This document shows positions 6,835-29,969 of a DNA stretch of 32,000 bases, piece after piece (position 1 is the first letter of the stretch; each line of letters starts with the position of its first letter). This DNA comes from Candidatus Saccharimonadota bacterium. Its GTDB lineage: Bacteria; Patescibacteriota; Saccharimonadia; Saccharimonadales; Saccharimonadaceae. Under the pieces are notes generated by a model that made no database searches, was not told the origin of the DNA, and saw only the letters and a list, made by a program, of their open reading frames with translations. Made by a program: the position numbers and the translations under genes. Location: the NCBI GenBank assembly GCA_000503915.1, contig CP006915.1, forward strand, positions 420,001 through 452,000. The letters are read 5' to 3'.

Positions 6835-7437
6835 ATGATTGACGCATTATTTGGCTCAAAAACACGGGTGAAATTGCTCCACCTATTTCTTAATAATCCT
6901 GGTAGGGCATTCTATGTTCGGGAGATTACCCGCCTCATCGACGAGCAGATTAATTCAGTTCGCCGAGAATTGTCAAACATGCTTAACGTCGGGATTATAA
7001 AAAGTGACACCTCGGATAATAAACTTTATTATGAAGTCGATCAGCGCTATGAGTATTATGTACCGCTGCGGGCGATTTTCGGAGACGGTGAGGATGCTCA
7101 TCAGTCTGTCGAAGTATCAAAGCCTTCAACGCTCGACTGGCAAGCGCGACTCGATGAACTCGGGAGCATCCGTCTGGCGATTATGGCCGGAGTGTTCGTT
7201 AATGGATCGGCCAGCACGATCGATCTTCTTTTGGTGGGTAATCCGGCGCCAGCCAAGCTGAAGGCGTTTATTAGGACGCTCGAGAAAAAAGAAGGCCGCG
7301 AGCTAAACTATAGCGTGCTACCGTATGACGAATTCTATTATCGCCTCAGTGTCCGTGATAAATTCATTACGGAGCTGCTGAGTAGTAAGCACGTCTTGCT
7401 ACGCGACGACGAACAAATACTGACAAGACAGAAGTAA
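6835..7437 (+). CDS. winged-helix (ArsR-like HTH) domain protein, function unknown
   Basis: 200 aa. The N-terminus LFGSKTRVKLLHLFLNNPGRAFYVREITRLIDEQINSVRRELSNMLNVGII looks like a wHTH. The C-terminal domain was not recognised. Confidence 0.5.
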   Translation: MIDALFGSKTRVKLLHLFLNNPGRAFYVREITRLIDEQINSVRRELSNMLNVGIIKSDTSDNKLYYEVDQRYEYYVPLRAIFGDGEDAHQSVEVSKPSTLDWQARLDELGSIRLAIMAGVFVNGSASTIDLLLVGNPAPAKLKAFIRTLEKKEGRELNYSVLPYDEFYYRLSVRDKFITELLSSKHVLLRDDEQILTRQK

Positions 7438-7454
7438 CAGGAGGGAGCTTTTAG

Positions 7455-8084
7455 ATGTTTGAACTCGAATATAAGGGTGGTAATACGATGGTGATTTCTA
7501 CCAGGAAATCAAAACTTATTACCGACCCGAAGCAATCAGTCGTGGGCTTAAAGGATATCGAACCAAAAGGAATGGTGTCCGTGGCGACTGAAGCGCGGTT
7601 CACTGTACACAGCGACGATGCGCTCCTGGAAGTTGAAGGACCGGGCGAGTACGAAGTCGGTGACTTTTCGATCAGAGGTATAGCTGCGCAGCGTCATCTC
7701 GATGATGGCGGGGCACTGGCTACTATTTACCGTATTGAAGTCGGCGACGTACGCATTGCCTTGCTTGGTAACATTGATCCACAGTTAAGCGAGGATCAGC
7801 TGGAAGCTCTAGGAGTGGTAGATATGATCATCCTGCCGGTTGGTGGTAGTGGCTACACTCTTGATGCGACAAGTGCCGCTCAGCTAGTACGACGGATTGA
7901 TGCCAAGGCTGTCATCCCGGTTCACTATGCGGATAAAGCCGTAAAGTATGAAGTACCCCAAGATGCCGTAGAGGTATTTATCAAAGAATTTCCTGCTGCG
8001 GTGGAGAGCATGGATAAGCTCAAGGTTAAGTCAGCCGCTTCGCTTCCGACAGTTGCGACAATCTACAAGTTGACGAGAAGCTAG
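7455..8084 (+). CDS. MBL-fold (Lactamase_B_3-like) protein with degenerate metal motif
   Basis: 209 aa. LITDP..., ILPVGGSGYTLDA and AKAVIPVHY resemble UPF0173-type MBL-fold hydrolases. The HxHxDH motif is reduced to VHSDD. RBS AGGAGGGAG. Confidence 0.5.
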   Translation: MFELEYKGGNTMVISTRKSKLITDPKQSVVGLKDIEPKGMVSVATEARFTVHSDDALLEVEGPGEYEVGDFSIRGIAAQRHLDDGGALATIYRIEVGDVRIALLGNIDPQLSEDQLEALGVVDMIILPVGGSGYTLDATSAAQLVRRIDAKAVIPVHYADKAVKYEVPQDAVEVFIKEFPAAVESMDKLKVKSAASLPTVATIYKLTRS

Positions 8085-8118
8085 ACGTACGACAGTGAAG
8101 TGAAGGGCAACAATAAAG

Positions 8119-8467: not shown

Positions 8468-9100
8468 GTGGATATTGGTTATTTATTTATCATCCTGGTA
8501 GTTATCTTATTCTCGATGACGTTGCACGAGGCTATGCACGGCTTTGTTGCTTACTGGCTTGGCGACGATACGGCAAAACTGCAAGGAAGATTAACGCTTA
8601 ATCCAATCCGACATATTGACCCGTTTCTCACGTTGCTACTACCTCTGTTGCTTGCGCTTGCGGGTGGTCCGATCTTCGGTGGTGCCAAGCCAGTGCCATT
8701 CAATCCGGCACGTGTCAGGTATGATGAATGGGGCGCGGCTCTTGTCGCTGCTGCTGGTCCACTGACGAACTTTGTGATAGCCTTCGTACTTTTTGGAATA
8801 TATGCCATGATCGGTACACCGCAAAGTGGTTTCTTGGCGCAATTTTTGATAGCGGGTGTTTATGTAAACCTCGGCTTCTTTATCTTTAATAGCCTGCCGA
8901 TCCCTCCGCTTGATGGCTCACGGGTACTCTATGCTCTGGCGCCAGAATTTGTTCGGCGAGGTATGGAGGCGATTGAGCGATTCGGGCTAATTGTGGTATT
9001 CGCCATCGTTCTCCTTGCTGGCTCGGTTATCGGTGGTATTATGCTGGCTGCACTCAACTTCTTTTGGCAATTATTTAGCGCTATCTTTGGACTGCACTAA
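8468..9100 (+). CDS. site-2 protease family (peptidase M50) membrane metalloprotease
   Basis: 210 aa, polytopic. HExxH (LHEAMHG), then GRLTLNPIRHIDP and NSLPIPPLDGSRV, typical of small M50 proteins. GTG start; exact start uncertain. Confidence 0.8.
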   Translation: MDIGYLFIILVVILFSMTLHEAMHGFVAYWLGDDTAKLQGRLTLNPIRHIDPFLTLLLPLLLALAGGPIFGGAKPVPFNPARVRYDEWGAALVAAAGPLTNFVIAFVLFGIYAMIGTPQSGFLAQFLIAGVYVNLGFFIFNSLPIPPLDGSRVLYALAPEFVRRGMEAIERFGLIVVFAIVLLAGSVIGGIMLAALNFFWQLFSAIFGLH

Positions 9101-9122
9101 GAGGCTGGTGGTATAATAGAAG

Positions 9123-9270
9123 TGTCCCCCAGTGGACGCGACGTAAATGATTTCCTAACGTCATTTGATAGGAAGCTCGATATTCTGGACCACTGTGGTG
9201 ATCCTCTGAGAGCCTCCACCTTGCACTTACGCGGGGATATATCAAGCGTCCGTCCGTCTGGGGGTTTTGT
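9123..9270 (+). ncRNA. candidate small RNA of unknown class
   Basis: Extended -10 TGgTATAAT (9109-9117). The ends pair: CCCCCAG (9126-9132) with CTGGGGG (9258-9264), GGACG with CGTCC, and GACG with CGTC. Followed immediately by TTTTGTTTGTT. No ORF. Confidence 0.4.
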
Positions 9271-9292
9271 TTGTTATAATAAATTGCGGTAG

Positions 9293-9437
9293 CGGGGTTT
9301 GGCGCAGTCTGGTAGCGCGCACGCCTGGGGTGAGACGAGCCGGTGGCTCGTCGTAAGGAAATCTTCCGATGGCGGCTATGCTGCCAATCGTGAAGTTTCG
9401 GGGTCGCCGAAGGTGACCGTGAGGAACCTCATGCCGG
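9293..9437 (+). pseudogene. disrupted tRNA-Pro(GGG) copy carrying the 86-nt element in its anticodon loop
   Basis: 9293-9330 is identical to the first 38 nt of the intact tRNA at 9466. After the insert, CCGTGAGGAACCTCATGCCGG loosely resembles GCGTGAGGTCATCGG. There is no T loop or 3' acceptor strand. Confidence 0.75.
9331..9416 (+). ncRNA. unclassified 86-nt structured RNA element, copy 1
   Basis: Collinear with 29388-29473: 62/86 identical, no indels. Hairpins at 9336-9350, 9358-9399 (nested long hairpin) and 9404-9416. 9 compensatory pair changes between copies. Confidence 0.65.
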
Positions 9438-9465
9438 AGGACGTGTCGTATAATAGAACAAGTAG

Positions 9466-9542
9466 CGGGGTTTGGCGCAGTCTGGTAGCGCGCACGCCTG
9501 GGGGGCGTGAGGTCATCGGTTCAAGTCCGGTAACCCCGACCA
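9466..9542 (+). tRNA. tRNA-Pro (anticodon GGG)
   Basis: CGGGGTT-TG-GCGC..GCGC-G-CACGC-CTGGGGG-GCGTG-AGGTC-ATCGG-TTCAAGT-CCGGT-AACCCCG-A-CCA. TATAAT lies 11 nt upstream. Confidence 0.93.
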
Positions 9543-9559: not shown

Positions 9560-9637
9560 CGGGGTGTGGCGCAGTCAGGCAAGCGCGCACCGTTCGGGAC
9601 GGTGAGGTCGCTGGTTCAAATCCAGTCACCCCGACCA
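9560..9637 (+). tRNA. tRNA-Pro (anticodon CGG)
   Basis: CGGGGTG...CACCG-TTCGGGA-CGGTG-AGGTC-GCTGG-TTCAAAT-CCAGT-CACCCCG-A-CCA. Confidence 0.95.
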
Positions 9638-13725: not shown

Positions 13726-14133
13726 GGGGCTGATACAGCTTTCGACAGATGGATCTTAACAACCTGCTCTGCAAGTCGCTTCAACAGACGTAATCTGTTA
13801 TATAATTGCAAACTTTATTGCAAAAGCAAAGACTGGACTAGCGAAATTAGCTGATGCTGTTCGCGTTCAGACCCTTGCGCCAGCATTGGTCTAATCTCCA
13901 ATGCCGTGGTCGTCCAGATACCTATTATGGATGGACTGCGTCATAGTAATAGGTAAACGATACGATCCAGTGCTCCAGTGGATCGTGGCGAGACTGTTCT
14001 GTAGCCCATGCTTTGTTCACGTTCGTTCCGTTTCTTGGAACCGAGCATGGCTAAAACAACAAATGGAACTAAGCTTGTAGACGAGTAGGAGGTTACCGTT
14101 TGGACGCGGGGGCAGTACCCGCCAGCTCCACCA
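13726..14133 (+). ncRNA. ssrA: tmRNA
   Basis: 5' end GGGGCTGATACAGCTTTCGACAG and 3' end GGACGCGGGGGCAGTACCCGCCAGCTCCACCA form the tRNA-Ala-like domain with G3:U. Candidate tag ORF GCA at 13808 to TAA at 13892-13894. TGgTATAAT at 13701-13709. Confidence 0.9.
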
Positions 14134-14145
14134 TGACCGCATACT

Positions 14146-14175
14146 AAATCGCCGCGAAATCGGCGATTTTTTGTT
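14146..14175 (+). terminator. rho-independent terminator after ssrA
   Basis: Stem AAATCGCCG (14146-14154) / CGGCGATTT (14161-14169), followed by a T-run. Confidence 0.7.
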
Positions 14176-14201
14176 GGCGTTTTTCTTTGACTGGCATGAA
14201 A

Positions 14202-14233
14202 AAACAACCGCCTGCGAGGAACGGTTGTTTTTG
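14202..14233. terminator. second terminator-like hairpin
   Basis: Stem AAACAACCG (14202-14210) / CGGTTGTTT (14222-14230). A-run upstream and T-run downstream. Confidence 0.5.
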
Positions 14234-15897
14234 TGTGGAGTTTTTTGGTTTCTTTTTTGTTTTTGGCTCCTGCATAATTTTTTTATTCAGAAGCTACCCC
14301 TATAATAGGCCGTGAAAACGTTTATGTCAATAACTTTTTTCAAAAAAGTTTTGGTAAAAAACACTACGTGATTTTGGCTGTGGATTGCGTAGACGGATGG
14401 CGCAAATGAGGCGTCGTGCTGGAGTGTTATGCCAGTTTTAAAAACTCGGGAATCGAATGATAACATTCAAGCTTTGGGTTGAGGTAATGATTTGGCAAAG
14501 TAGTTTTGGCTAGGCAGCCTGGCGGAGAGAAGATATAAGAGTTAACAGTTGGCGCCATCAGGATTTCCCAATGGGGCTATGGCTATGCGCGGTCACGACG
14601 AGGAGCGGTCATAGAGGCCTCTATGACGCTGCTTAGTGATGAGTTTTGCCTATCCTTGAGCGGGCTAATATAATAAGGCTAATCCTTTCCCGTAAAAGGC
14701 ACCATAAAAGAGGCAGCGCATGACATACCTCACCCTATATAGCGTAGAAATATCGGGAACCTCTACTATCTTTGAGTTGCTAGTCCGTGGTCGGGACATT
14801 AGATGGTCTAATTCGGAGTCCTAACGTCTACGCAAGACAAGTTTTGCCCTTCAGTTGTTAGTGACTTGGCATAGGGGTGAACCATCAGGGCAACCTTAAC
14901 CTTGCTTCGGGGATGGCAGGGCAGATACTATGTGGTCTGTTCCTTCTGGTGGGGCAATAACGGTATCAAGCTATATCTGATCATCTGTGCCGTATACCGG
15001 CGGGCAACTCCGGTAGGTAAAATACACGACGCAGCAGGCAATTGGCTTAATGGTACGTCAGGTTCGTCGACAGCAATCAACTACACGGTCAGGTAGTTGC
15101 CGGATCCGCCTTAATATGTGTATACACCATCAGTGAGCGTGATGAGGCTCTTGCGTGTACGTGTGCCACGTCTTAATGCAGCCACTTCTACCCGGCAAGA
15201 GCACACTATAGCTATCACAGGCCTGATGATAGTAAGTAGCCATCGCTCAGCAGCTGTACCGACAGCTATTCGACCGATTAGACTTGGAATGGTGTGGGGC
15301 AAGTAGCTCGACATTGATCAAACCACTACTGTAACGTTGCTATAAGTACATCGCTGTAATAAAACCGTCTAGACTGTTTCGGAGAGGTTAAATGTACGTT
15401 GTATATTTAACCTACAATATATACATCAAAATTATTGACCAACGAGTTAGCCTATGCTACTGTAAGGGTAAGCTTTTCACAAAAACAAAAAAAGCCAAAA
15501 ACACCTTTACAATTAAATCTGCTCCGACGGAAAGTCGATAACGGCAGAAAACCACTTTTGAACTGCTGACCTTCAGTAGCTCATGCACCTTCCTTTTATG
15601 TGGTTTATGATGGCGTTATCGATGCTCCGCCGTTCTCTCTTTCAGAGAAAACTGTGTTTGAGCGCCGGATTAGTACCGACGCGCTGAGTTAATCCTTGTT
15701 ACCATCCAAAGGTAATAGTGACTCCACTCAGCGTGTGCGTGGAACCTCCAATACATTGCCCCAGCAATTGCTGGAGCGGTCAGTTGTCTCGAGCGGCTAG
15801 CTCGTCTATCGACACACGCGTTAAATATATATTTTTGAACGGTCAGTGCTTGTCTAGACACACGGTTAGTCGCTCAGACACCAAATCTTTTATTAAA
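14234..15897. other. 1.7-kb ORF-free block: candidate large non-coding RNA(s) or decayed DNA
   Basis: No ORF over 67 aa in six frames. TAA, TAG and TGA all occur frequently in the frame I translated, and the six-frame track shows no ORF over 67 aa. Base composition looks ordinary from about 14380 to 15400. Contains nested complementary segments and several perfect palindromes. Confidence 0.5.
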
Positions 15898-15913
15898 ATG
15901 GTATAGTGGTGGT

Positions 15914-16300
15914 ATGTTGGGAAGAGTGATTGTCCTCAGTTCGGTAGCGGCGGTGATACTGCTCGTTATTATTCTCCAGACGACGACGCCATCGATGATC
16001 GGTCCAGTAGGTTTGCTGGCCGTCTTTTTTTTACTTTACATAGCAGTACTAGGGATAGTGACATGGCTTCTATGGATTACTTCAAGGGCGACGGCATACA
16101 TAGGTCGGCGTATTATGACGCGTAGTCCGCCGCAATCACTGTCGCTGTCGAAGGCATATTATTTCTCATCAGTAATTGCGCTCGCCCCCGTTATGATGCT
16201 CGCGATGCAGTCAATCGGCTCACTCGGTGTGTATGAGGTTATACTCATCAGTGTCTTTCTAGGGGTGGGAATCTTGTATATTGCAAAGCGCAGTTTATAG
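15914..16300 (+). CDS. hypothetical integral membrane protein (128 aa)
   Basis: 4 predicted hydrophobic helices. TGgTATAGT (15899-15907) ends 7 nt before the ATG, so the mRNA is probably leaderless. Confidence 0.6.
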   Translation: MLGRVIVLSSVAAVILLVIILQTTTPSMIGPVGLLAVFFLLYIAVLGIVTWLLWITSRATAYIGRRIMTRSPPQSLSLSKAYYFSSVIALAPVMMLAMQSIGSLGVYEVILISVFLGVGILYIAKRSL

Positions 16301-27235: not shown

Positions 27236-27248
27236 GTTAACAATTTAG
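27236..27248 (+). promoter_or_regulatory. boxA-like antitermination element (also the 5' strand of the 16S processing stem)
   Basis: GTTAACAATTTAG shares TTAACAATTTA with the E. coli rrn boxA TGCTCTTTAACAATTTATCA, as I recall it. Confidence 0.5.
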
Positions 27249-27304
27249 TTGTGCAATAACATCGTCAGTCTATTTTGTAGACGTCACTTGCAATAGTGAC
27301 ATCT

Positions 27305-28909
<1,605 letters not shown>

Positions 28910-29084
28910 TAGGGAGAGTTATGCCAGAGGAACGAGAAATCTTTCTCTGAAGCTAGGTCGGTCCTGTTACTGTGATGAGCTTACATAGTAACGTTGTTCC
29001 AGCTTGCTGGAGCAGGACGAAGTTCAAAGTGGTTTATAGACACGCTTTAAGACGAGTTATTGCACAACTAAGTTGTTAACAAAA

Positions 29085-29284: not shown

Positions 29285-29321
29285 GGGGTAAGTCGGGCTT
29301 CGGTCCGTTCTTACTCCACCA
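29285..29321 (+). ncRNA. tRNA-Ala-like acceptor/T-arm minihelix ending in ACCA
   Basis: GGGGTAAG-T-CGGGC-TTCG-GTCCG-TT-CTTACTCC-A-CCA. An 8-bp acceptor-like stem with G3:U and a 5-bp stem capped by a UUCG loop, then discriminator A and CCA. Confidence 0.5.
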
Positions 29322-29334
29322 AGAGTACATGTAT

Positions 29335-29485
29335 GGGCGCCTAGCTCAGTTGGCTCTGGTCTCTCGTTTACACCGAGAGGGTCGGGGTGAGAACTGCCAG
29401 TGGCAGTTCGCAAGGCGACTTTCCGAGGTAAGCTGTGCTTACCATCGTGAAATCGCGGGCTCGCCGAAGGTGAGTCGAGTCCCGA
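29335..29485 (+). pseudogene. disrupted tRNA-Val(UAC)-like copy carrying the 86-nt element in its T arm
   Basis: GGGCGCC-TA-GCTC... with an intact anticodon arm TCTCG-TTTACAC-CGAGA. The D arm is degenerate. The T stem TCGGG/CCCGA is split by the insert. There is no 3' acceptor strand. Confidence 0.7.
29388..29473 (+). ncRNA. unclassified 86-nt structured RNA element, copy 2
   Basis: Collinear with 9331-9416. Hairpins ACTGCC-AGT-GGCAGT (29393-29407), GTAAGC-TGT-GCTTAC (29428-29442) and TCGCC-GAA-GGTGA (29461-29473). Confidence 0.65.
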
Positions 29486-29500
29486 AGCTTAATAAATTAT

Positions 29501-29577
29501 GGGTTGTTAGCTCAGTTGGCTAGAGCATCTCGTTTACACCGAGAGGGCCGGGGGTTCGAGTCCCTCACAACCCACCA
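29501..29577 (+). tRNA. tRNA-Val (anticodon UAC)
   Basis: GGGTTGT-TA-GCTC..GAGC-A-TCTCG-TTTACAC-CGAGA-GGGCC-GGGGG-TTCGAGT-CCCTC-ACAACCC-A-CCA. Confidence 0.95.
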
Positions 29578-29665: not shown

Positions 29666-29690
29666 ACCGCCTGGAAGGGCGGTTTTTATT
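29666..29690 (+). terminator. terminator-like hairpin between tRNA-Ile and 23S
   Basis: ACCGCC (29666-29671) / GGCGGT (29678-29683), then TTTTTATTT. Confidence 0.5.
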
Positions 29691-29969
29691 TACAATGCTC
29701 TACAGTGCTGTAGACGTAAGAGAGTCTGCGGATATATACGAGAGTATTTACTATTGCAGAAACTGTTCGTCTCAGGTACAATTATAACTAGTTACGCGAA
29801 TGTTCTTCATGAACCTCTGGCGATAGGGTGAAAAATTACAACAAAACCGCCTTTACAGCGCCTCTAGTGGGGTGATAGGATGGTAAGGCTGCTCTGCGAG
29901 ACCAGATAGAACGCACCATTAGTCGAATGATGACTTCGAATGTGTTCTCGCGAGGCGAGAGTACTGCAA

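Follow-up and report, generated by a model that had tools for sequence, protein, structure and literature searches.

A 32,000-nucleotide (nt) stretch of the genome of a Candidatus Saccharimonadota bacterium, hereafter the window (GenBank assembly GCA_000503915.1, contig CP006915.1, positions 420,001 to 452,000; coordinates below are counted from its first nucleotide), contains two copies, W1 and W2, of a folded element about 87 nt long that lacks an open reading frame (ORF) and lies inside truncated copies of transfer RNA (tRNA) genes. Comparison with related copies in other genomes and metagenomes (sequences denoted here by L numbers) demonstrates that the element entered tRNA-derived DNA repeatedly, only in the sense orientation and with a reproducible junction, and was then preserved. 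The interpretation that we favor, and hold to be fairly probable, is that of an insertion-derived, ORF-less structured element of Candidatus Saccharibacteria that enters tRNA sequences and is kept by selection. The original prediction, made from the letters of the window and its ORFs, had proposed a site-specific non-autonomous mobile element; in this general form, the proposal is supported by the many tRNA sites, the empty orthologous sites and the identical copies found across contexts.

W1 and W2 belong to a direct repeat (9327-9416 and 29384-29473) that is 73% identical over 90 nt without gaps. A covariance model of the family assigns 108.7 bits to W1 and 108.0 bits to W2, against 11.8 bits for the next best match (64 kb, both strands), so that both predicted copies are real. 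Sequence patterns and then a covariance-model search were used to gather further copies from public genomes and metagenomes, and the family now comprises at least about 40 copies, scoring 44-120 bits, that come from Candidatus Saccharibacteria or unnamed metagenome contigs. These counts are lower bounds: the genome scan yielded at least 8 true copies among the matches listed, and the metagenome scan, with a tighter pattern, about 26 true copies among 71 matches; the first pattern applied to the genome collection mostly matched what is apparently coding sequence conserved in Solirubrobacterales. Another subtype of the same architecture, further diverged in sequence, is represented by L113a, L131b, L139b, L179b and the L152 composite. 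The predicted length of 86 nt has to be revised, the folded unit being 87-88 nt long: both window copies start with TGAGA and carry GGTGA at the other end, as predicted, but the unit extends past GGTGA by a C or G that covaries with an internal G or C in the outer pairs of hairpin P3, and the first flanking base 3' of the element closes P3.

Both window copies fold better than shuffled sequences (z = -3.6 for W1 and -4.0 for W2), and the differences between them are compensatory. Across 31 distinct copies, 98.8% of the cells are paired and 18 of the 32 pairs change on both sides; none of 500 shuffles matched the family pairing, and sliding the partners by 1-3 columns left 26-49% paired. RNAalifold independently recovers the three-hairpin structure, which consists of P1 (8 base pairs (bp), loop of 3-7 nt), a long, bulged P2 of about 17 bp, and P3 (7 bp, GAA loop, one invariant G.U pair). 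The base of P2 covaries freely (GNNA/UNNC), its middle is conserved in sequence (UUCCGAU/AUCG-U-GAA, with a bulged U) and its tip re-pairs rapidly; the most conserved sequence of the element is thus internal (P2b). The G.U pairs (about 59 cells, with one pair invariant) far exceed the non-standard pairs (12 cells), and therefore it is the plus (sense) strand that folds. The family is apparently undescribed: Rfam 15 gave no match to the element at the gathering thresholds and, at E <= 10, only chance matches of at most 20 bits at both loci, and no description was found in the literature searched. Comparison by eye with known ribozyme cores (hammerhead, HDV-like, hatchet, pistol, twister) and the K-turn revealed none that fits, in agreement with the Rfam models checked. 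A k-mer search for sequences elsewhere in the window that are complementary to the element produced chance matches only, including one 10-mer in ordinary 23S ribosomal RNA (rRNA).

The association with tRNA genes is strict. All copies with enough flanking sequence are found, in the sense orientation, in a tRNA copy that is truncated and has an intact tRNA with the same anticodon as its neighbor, on the same strand and 23-91 nt away; the exception to this spacing is the second copy in a doubly interrupted pseudo-tRNA-Gln of L113, 182 nt from the intact tRNA. With two exceptions, L079 and the chimeric L114, the flanks of the element match the neighboring intact tRNA. The anticodons represented number at least 14 (Pro GGG/UGG, Val UAC, Lys CUU/UUU, Leu UAG/UAA, Gln CUG/UUG, Ser GGA, Gly GCC, Glu UUC, Ile GAU, Arg UCU, as well as a Thr-like remnant), extending the original observation of different tRNAs interrupted at different structural positions. 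Half of the host tRNA fragments are 5' parts, and none of the approximately 35 host copies keeps both acceptor strands.

Two layouts recur. In class A, which includes W1 and W2, the 5' part of a tRNA is followed by the element, a few remaining tRNA bases, an AT-rich upstream region and the intact tRNA, with a gap to the latter of 41-49 nt in 11 of 15 loci. In class B, the intact tRNA comes first and is followed by a terminator hairpin and two copies of the tRNA 3' half, the first in reverse complement and the second direct, with the element in the T loop of the direct copy and sometimes a second terminator after it; the element starts 70-91 nt past the tRNA 3' end. The class B scaffold also exists without the element, after tRNA-Ala in L205 (13127-13300) and in L139, again as a terminator hairpin, a reverse-complement tRNA 3' half and a direct T-arm copy. 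Inverted T-arm copies occur beside 13 of 32 element copies compared with 4 of 20 control tRNAs searched over a larger window, an association that is suggestive, not decisive. On the reverse strand of L152, at about 2088-2290 and again at 7-101, a type-1 copy extends as far as the GGG that precedes P3, where a complete type-2-like copy directly takes over; this composite, present twice on the contig, adjoins two tRNA-Lys-like genes.

The junctions obey a common rule. With the element taken as 87 nt and the flanks aligned to the intact neighbor, the base 5' of the element is G in all 39 copies, GG in 35 and GGGG in 11; the predicted target GGGG^G thus holds at both window loci, but across the family it is a special case of a loose rule, G|NN. 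Exactly two tRNA bases are missing in 17 copies aligned by algorithm and in 4 more aligned by eye: TT at tRNA positions 54-55, after G53, or GT at 53-54, after G52, each in several tRNAs; AG or GC at 38-39, after G37, in Leu-UAG and Pro-GGG; GT at 19-20, after G18, in Gln; and CG at 25-26, after G24, in Gly-GCC. The insertion sites are accordingly located in the T arm, the anticodon loop (37/38), the D loop and the D stem; the D-stem junctions of L139a and L131a are secondary deletions, L139a being the W2 ortholog minus tRNA positions 26-52. As predicted, there is no target-site duplication; bases are lost instead. The constancy of the two-base loss suggests an enzyme that makes a fixed stagger rather than sloppy microhomology joining. 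A miniature inverted-repeat transposable element was considered and rejected, given that the ends (TGAGAAC... and ...GGTGAC) are not inverted repeats and that target bases are lost, not duplicated.

Among the specific candidates of the original prediction was a palindrome-associated transposable element (PATE) of the IS200/IS605 type. Such an element, or a relative of the repetitive extragenic palindromic (REP) doublets known as REPINs, would be moved as single-stranded DNA (ssDNA) by a Y1/HUH transposase (IS200/IS605 TnpA or a REP-associated tyrosine transposase, RAYT) and inserted 3' of a short G-rich target, which would account for the strict strand-specific orientation, the hairpins at both ends, and the lack of both a target duplication and an ORF. 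Moreover, Y1 homologs with 60-75% identity are widespread in Saccharibacteria, and a Y1_Tnp gene (Pfam E = 8.9e-11) lies 3.3 kb from the copy in L174. We nevertheless regard this origin as improbable. IS200/IS605 insertion leaves the target unchanged, whereas two target bases are lost at most junctions of the element; no conserved tetra- or pentanucleotide target is discernible beyond G or GG; and the best-conserved sequence is internal. The Y1 gene of L174 has its own REP hairpin in three copies (GTGAAAGG-ACGGA-CCTTTCAC), found only beside that gene and absent from the window. The two end hairpins of the element, P1 (GAACUGCC-AGU-GGCAGUUC) and P3 (GGUCGCC-GAA-GGUGACC), are unrelated to each other, and by eye neither is like this REP hairpin. 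Nor do the window ORFs include a Y1/HUH transposase, an integrase or any other coding partner for the element. The L174 gene itself (7365-8106), flanked by three 21-nt REP hairpins, is a genuine RAYT-like Y1/HUH gene that encodes 220 aa with an HFH motif and, judging from its widespread homologs, looks vertically inherited and domesticated; as a lead to the mobilizer, it was dropped because its hairpins differ from the element.

The strict sense orientation, together with the location of the Pro and Leu sites at the canonical position 37/38, could also indicate a tRNA intron, self-spliced or protein-spliced, that is decaying in duplicated genes, as the original prediction suggested; indeed, archaeal tRNA introns transpose among tRNAs and positions (PMC4033280). 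However, an 87-nt element made of three simple hairpins has no group I core, which would take about 10 helices and over 200 nt between intact exons, and no intron or ribozyme match in Rfam at E <= 10, and its termini, UGAGA and GGUGAC, are by eye not complementary in the manner of a bulge-helix-bulge. Removal of the element leaves a loop of 5 or 6 nt, never of 7 nt, because two bases are missing, and the hosts combine the loss of one or both acceptor strands with the presence of an intact paralog beside each copy with enough flank. An intron is hence very improbable. The T loop and the anticodon loop are also known sublocations of integrase crossover, which brings up the possibility that the host fragments are attachment-site (att) scars of phages or islands integrated into tRNA genes. 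A tRNA fragment beside an intact tRNA is the classic signature of such integration (PMC9897764), but the fragments and intact genes are separated by only 23-91 nt, and neither an island nor an integrase is present; the fragments are in many cases 5' parts and not the displaced 3' identity block; and the element, a conserved folded RNA, interrupts a loop instead of abutting that block. Scans of viral contigs and BLAST searches of phages and plasmids gave no match to the element. We give an integration scar the smallest chance of all the explanations weighed here.

Evidence of gain comes from orthologous loci. The gene order at the Pro locus (M50 peptidase, 6S-like RNA, tRNA-Pro, NUDIX-RNase H) is conserved, and in the closest relative, L192 (83% protein identity), pseudo-tRNA-Pro, element, tRNA-Pro(GGG) and tRNA-Pro(CGG) follow one another as in the window; six further syntenic relatives (71-78% identity) have one tRNA-Pro(GGG), without a pseudo-copy and without a covariance-model match. 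The rRNA spacer is empty in L203 (Ala-Val-Ile) and L204 (Ala-Ile-Val) and is occupied by W2 orthologs in L205 and L139, with 6 differences between the L205 copy and W2. Related genomes are therefore empty at both window loci, and the element has been gained and lost between genomes. Movement is indicated by copies in unrelated contexts, which can resemble each other more than orthologs do: 87-nt copies in the Lys(UUU) and Thr-like contexts of different species representatives have no differences at all, and copies in Ile and Leu contexts have 4, compared with 6-9 between orthologous copies. The mixed alleles at the Val and Thr loci and the adjacent inverted T-arm copies, which lack the element, are hints that break-induced template switching, or else the uptake of tRNA DNA of foreign origin, takes part in the process.

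Once in place, the element changes slowly. Between the window and L192, a copy free of pattern ascertainment bias because it was retrieved through the neighboring protein, the element is 91% identical, the working tRNA-Pro(GGG) 86% and the spacer after the element, which is saturated with changes, about 30%; every change in a stem keeps the pairing, as in P2c, where GGCGGC/GCUGCC became GCAAGC/GCUUGC. At the level of sequence, these patterns show that the fold is maintained by purifying selection. The 5' part of the pseudo-tRNA is identical or nearly so to the intact gene within a genome while differing at 5 positions between genomes, and would accordingly be under concerted evolution or selection. 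The compensatory changes, the graded conservation and the concerted 5' part lend real support to the predicted functional chimera of a tRNA 5' part and the element; what such a chimeric RNA would do is conjectural.

A rival explanation is a host small RNA or cis-acting module that is not itself mobile and spreads only by duplication, rearrangement and conversion of tRNA genes, the tRNA pieces serving as promoter, 5' end and processing handles. Strong purifying selection on orthologous copies, the concerted evolution of the pseudo-tRNA 5' part with the intact gene, the stereotyped spacing in both classes, the existence of element-free fold-back tRNA scaffolds and the retention of a 5' tRNA fragment in streamlined genomes are all in line with this explanation. 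Segmental duplication, however, cannot bring the same element, with one junction rule, into four different parts of unrelated tRNAs (D stem, D loop, anticodon loop and T arm), and the identical copies in different tRNA contexts of different species would be left unexplained. We accordingly consider a purely non-mobile module unlikely, although it is the strongest of the rival explanations.

Under the insertion scenario that we prefer, the element would enter tRNA-derived sequence (T arm, anticodon loop, D loop or D stem) directly after a G, replacing two bases. Because the host tRNA copy would thereby lose its function, only insertions in spare or partial duplicates would survive, which would be why only redundant or partial tRNA duplicates carry the element. 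The inserted copy would be transcribed from tRNA, rRNA or 6S promoters as a chimera of tRNA fragment and element, and its fold would then be preserved by purifying selection; an RNA whose fold is under such selection presumably does something, and our best guess is processing or stabilization in cis of tRNA-operon precursors, or a role as a stable small RNA. That copies occur only in the sense orientation, and in the D, anticodon or T arm with most of them within or next to a loop, suggests a single-stranded intermediate (RNA or ssDNA), by which a sense-specific spread would proceed with the help of a factor encoded elsewhere.

A more radical version, doubtful to a somewhat greater degree than the non-mobile module, places the movement at the RNA level: a structured RNA, possibly a new self-cleaving or ligating ribozyme or a substrate of a cellular RNA ligase, would be spliced into exposed tRNA loops after a G and then reverse transcribed and recombined beside a tRNA gene. 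The sense-only orientation, the sites in arms and loops, the preceding G and the inverted tRNA copies, as if from snap-back synthesis, are consistent with this version, which, if true, would give the transposition of archaeal tRNA introns a counterpart in bacteria and would add a new type of retro-element, one without a protein. A loss of 2 bp from the rRNA target also accompanies the insertion of R2 retrotransposons; for the element, no reverse transcriptase is implicated.

Several points weigh against the insertion scenario. No mobilizing enzyme or intermediate was identified, and expression of the element RNA is presumed. W1 and W2 are only 73% identical, so that copies within a genome can be old, unlike those of a recently active repeat. 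The scan pattern for most copies required an intact P3, and decayed copies are under-sampled as a result. The T-arm sites could have been spread by recombination through the near-universal GGTTCGAATCC, not by transposition. Finally, the L152 composite is downgraded as a case of nested insertion, given that fusion at the GGG microhomology fits equally well.

The features of the two window loci are listed in Table 1. At locus 1, the pseudo-tRNA-Pro(GGG) together with 4 nt upstream forms 42 nt with 100% identity to the region of the intact tRNA-Pro(GGG), which starts 136 nt downstream of the end of the pseudo-tRNA; the predicted interruption in the anticodon loop, where CTGGGG gives way to TGAGA, and the complete tRNA of the same anticodon next to it are both confirmed. 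The original prediction missed the remainder of the interrupted tRNA 3' of W1, CCGTGAGG..CATGCCGG, which matches tRNA positions ~39/40-53; CCGTGAGG is common to the window and L192, and the sequences diverge beyond it. The -10-like spacer that had been proposed does contain the TATAAT hexamer, 11 nt upstream of the intact tRNA, but a consensus promoter scan of locus 1 called neither this hexamer nor the second one ahead of the pseudo-tRNA; its sole call, 9088-9117, lies upstream of the 6S-like RNA, and there is no terminator ahead of the tRNAs.

Table 1. Annotated features of the two element-bearing loci in the window.
Feature	Position	Strand	Basis
Second hexamer, TGnTATAAT-type, ahead of pseudo-tRNA-Pro	9272-9280	+	sequence reading
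Pseudo-tRNA-Pro(GGG) 5' part, tRNA positions 1-37, ending CTGGGG	9293..9330	+	identical to first 38 nt of intact tRNA
Element copy W1, TGAGA...GGTGA+C	9331..9417	+	covariance-model and fold scores (see text)
W1 hairpins	P1 9334-9352, P2 9358-9399, P3 9402-9418	+	family covariation
Decayed rest of interrupted tRNA-Pro, CGTGAGG..CATGCCGG	9418..9438	+	sequence reading
TATAAT hexamer	9449..9454	+	sequence reading
Intact tRNA-Pro(GGG), working paralog	9466..9542	+	ARAGORN; Rfam tRNA 60 bits
tRNA-Pro(CGG), extra paralog	9560..9637	+	ARAGORN
Pseudo-tRNA-Val(UAC) 5' part, positions 1-52, ending in four T-stem G	29335..29387	+	82% identity to intact Val over 56 nt
Element copy W2, TGAGA...GGTGA+G	29388..29474	+	covariance-model and fold scores (see text)
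T-loop/T-stem rest of interrupted tRNA-Val, TCGAGTCCCGAA	29475..29486	+	sequence reading; same rest in L205
Intact tRNA-Val(UAC), working paralog, allele GGGTTGT	29501..29577	+	ARAGORN, Rfam

The extra tRNA-Pro(CGG) is found only in the lineage of the window and L192, which also carries the element; in its acceptor and T arm it agrees with the only tRNA-Pro(GGG) of the relative L194, which suggests that the gene was duplicated and its anticodon altered in the same lineage in which the element was gained. A divergent 6S-like RNA (9123-9268, plus strand) separates the tRNA-Pro cluster from the M50 peptidase gene and is a full-length match to the Rfam 6S model that falls below the gathering threshold (23.6 bits, E = 0.0034); it is kept in five relatives, with compensatory change in 19 of 50 predicted pairs.

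Locus 2 is situated between the 16S rRNA and the spacer tRNAs. As predicted from the sequence reading, the tRNA-Val(UAC)-like gene is broken after four G of its T stem; tRNA sequence resumes 3' of W2 as (G)TCGAGTCCCGA, with no 3' acceptor strand, and the intact tRNA-Val of the same anticodon begins 27 nt past the element. The pseudo-tRNA is damaged in the 3' strand of its D stem, and its acceptor (GGGCGCC) differs from that of the intact neighbor (GGGTTGT), the two being different Val alleles; the single Val gene of L203 has the allele GGGCGCT, the source type of the pseudo-tRNA in the window.

Several other features of this rRNA operon deserve mention. Directly after tRNA-Ala (29285-29325, plus strand), a hairpin (GGGGUAAG...CUUACUCC) followed by ACCA and including a G3.U-type wobble looks like the acceptor minihelix of tRNA-Ala and is kept in the rRNA spacers of L203, L204, L205, L139 and L168. 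The 16S rRNA (27305-28908) is enlarged by about 115 nt in the helix-6 (V1) region, at about 27375-27535; this expansion is present in L205 and not in L203 or L204 and is unrelated in sequence to the 87-nt element. A 25-nt inverted repeat with 96% complementarity (27236-27260 and 29056-29080) flanks the 16S rRNA and is probably a processing stem. After tRNA-Ile, a terminator-like hairpin with a T run (29666-29683, plus strand) is followed by a promoter-like site (29852-29881) ahead of the 23S rRNA; because these sites intervene, the 23S rRNA may be transcribed separately from the 16S-tRNA unit. In L205, genes for a RelB/ParE toxin-antitoxin system and bAvd, an accessory protein of diversity-generating retroelements, are located at 14118-16120, just downstream of the element-bearing rRNA/tRNA cluster.

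In the window as a whole, ARAGORN and Rfam identify seven tRNAs, RNase P RNA, transfer-messenger RNA (tmRNA), 16S rRNA and the start of 23S rRNA; the ORFs encode housekeeping proteins (ThrRS, MiaA, NrdR, L20, GyrB and a NUDIX-RNase H fusion), and the nearest homologs of the window proteins are labeled Candidatus Saccharibacteria or Saccharimonadales. The tmRNA (13726-14133, plus strand) is an Rfam call at 102.9 bits; ARAGORN misses the window copy and finds the ortholog in L200. Downstream of the tmRNA lies a region poor in ORFs (14134-15913), of which about 180 nt (14198-14375) are 81-89% identical in five syntenic relatives; as this conserved block has neither an ORF of at least 80 aa nor an Rfam match, it probably represents a further non-coding RNA that has not been catalogued.

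The tRNA genes of bacteria are considered uniform in structure, the only known interruptions being group I and group II introns at position 37/38 (review, PMC4033280), and the element colonizes tRNA sequence at several positions. Saccharibacteria are ultrasmall, streamlined and host-dependent, so that useless DNA is unexpected, yet the element is conserved like the neighboring tRNA. Should its RNA be functional, the phylum would have a new non-coding RNA of its own, linked to the operons for tRNA and rRNA; should the element move as RNA or ssDNA, it would offer a tractable bacterial model for the interruption, duplication and replacement of tRNA genes. In practical terms, the element loci give rise to pseudo-tRNA calls and may disrupt the assembly of rRNA operons in genomes of Saccharibacteria, and the covariance model of the family can be used to annotate them.

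Among known systems, the Rickettsia palindromic elements (RPE) and the enterobacterial REP and enterobacterial repetitive intergenic consensus (ERIC) sequences are ORF-less repeats of about 100 nt, dispersed and sometimes located inside genes, that keep their RNA structure by compensatory change and are mobilized in trans or in an unknown manner; unlike the element, they are not confined to tRNA-derived sequence and have neither a fixed orientation nor a link to an intact paralog. Bacterial rRNA intervening sequences, which are structured, about 100 nt long and sporadic in distribution, take the place of a few loop bases and are co-transcribed, their mode of spread being unknown; they reside in a functional gene and are cut by RNase III to give a working fragmented rRNA, whereas the tRNA copy that hosts the element is dead, its task falling to a separate intact gene. 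The IS200/IS605 PATEs and RAYT-REPIN systems resemble the element in being strand-specific, hairpin-bearing, non-autonomous and free of target duplication, and a RAYT-like gene does occur in the phylum, but the element lacks the defining features of these systems that were tested. The partial tRNAs left by integrases (PMC9897764) likewise lie beside a complete copy; in the case of the element, there is no island or integrase, the two tRNA copies are tens of bases apart, and the element is inside a loop. The transposing introns of Thermoproteales tRNAs, as summarized in a review (Fujishima et al. 2010, per PMC4033280), are short and ORF-less, with similar sequences across many tRNA genes; as in the element, the length is below 100 nt, many tRNAs are involved, the D, anticodon and T regions are all occupied and the orientation is always sense. 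According to that review, these introns reside in functional genes and are excised at a bulge-helix-bulge by the splicing endonuclease; the element, in contrast, is bacterial, occupies truncated pseudo-copies with two bases missing and has, by eye, no such motif. Being ORF-less and multi-copy, with a conserved fold and a patchy distribution, the element is a structured dispersed repeat of the RPE/REP kind in the broad sense, and it is best filed with the structured dispersed repeats or the mobile intervening sequences.

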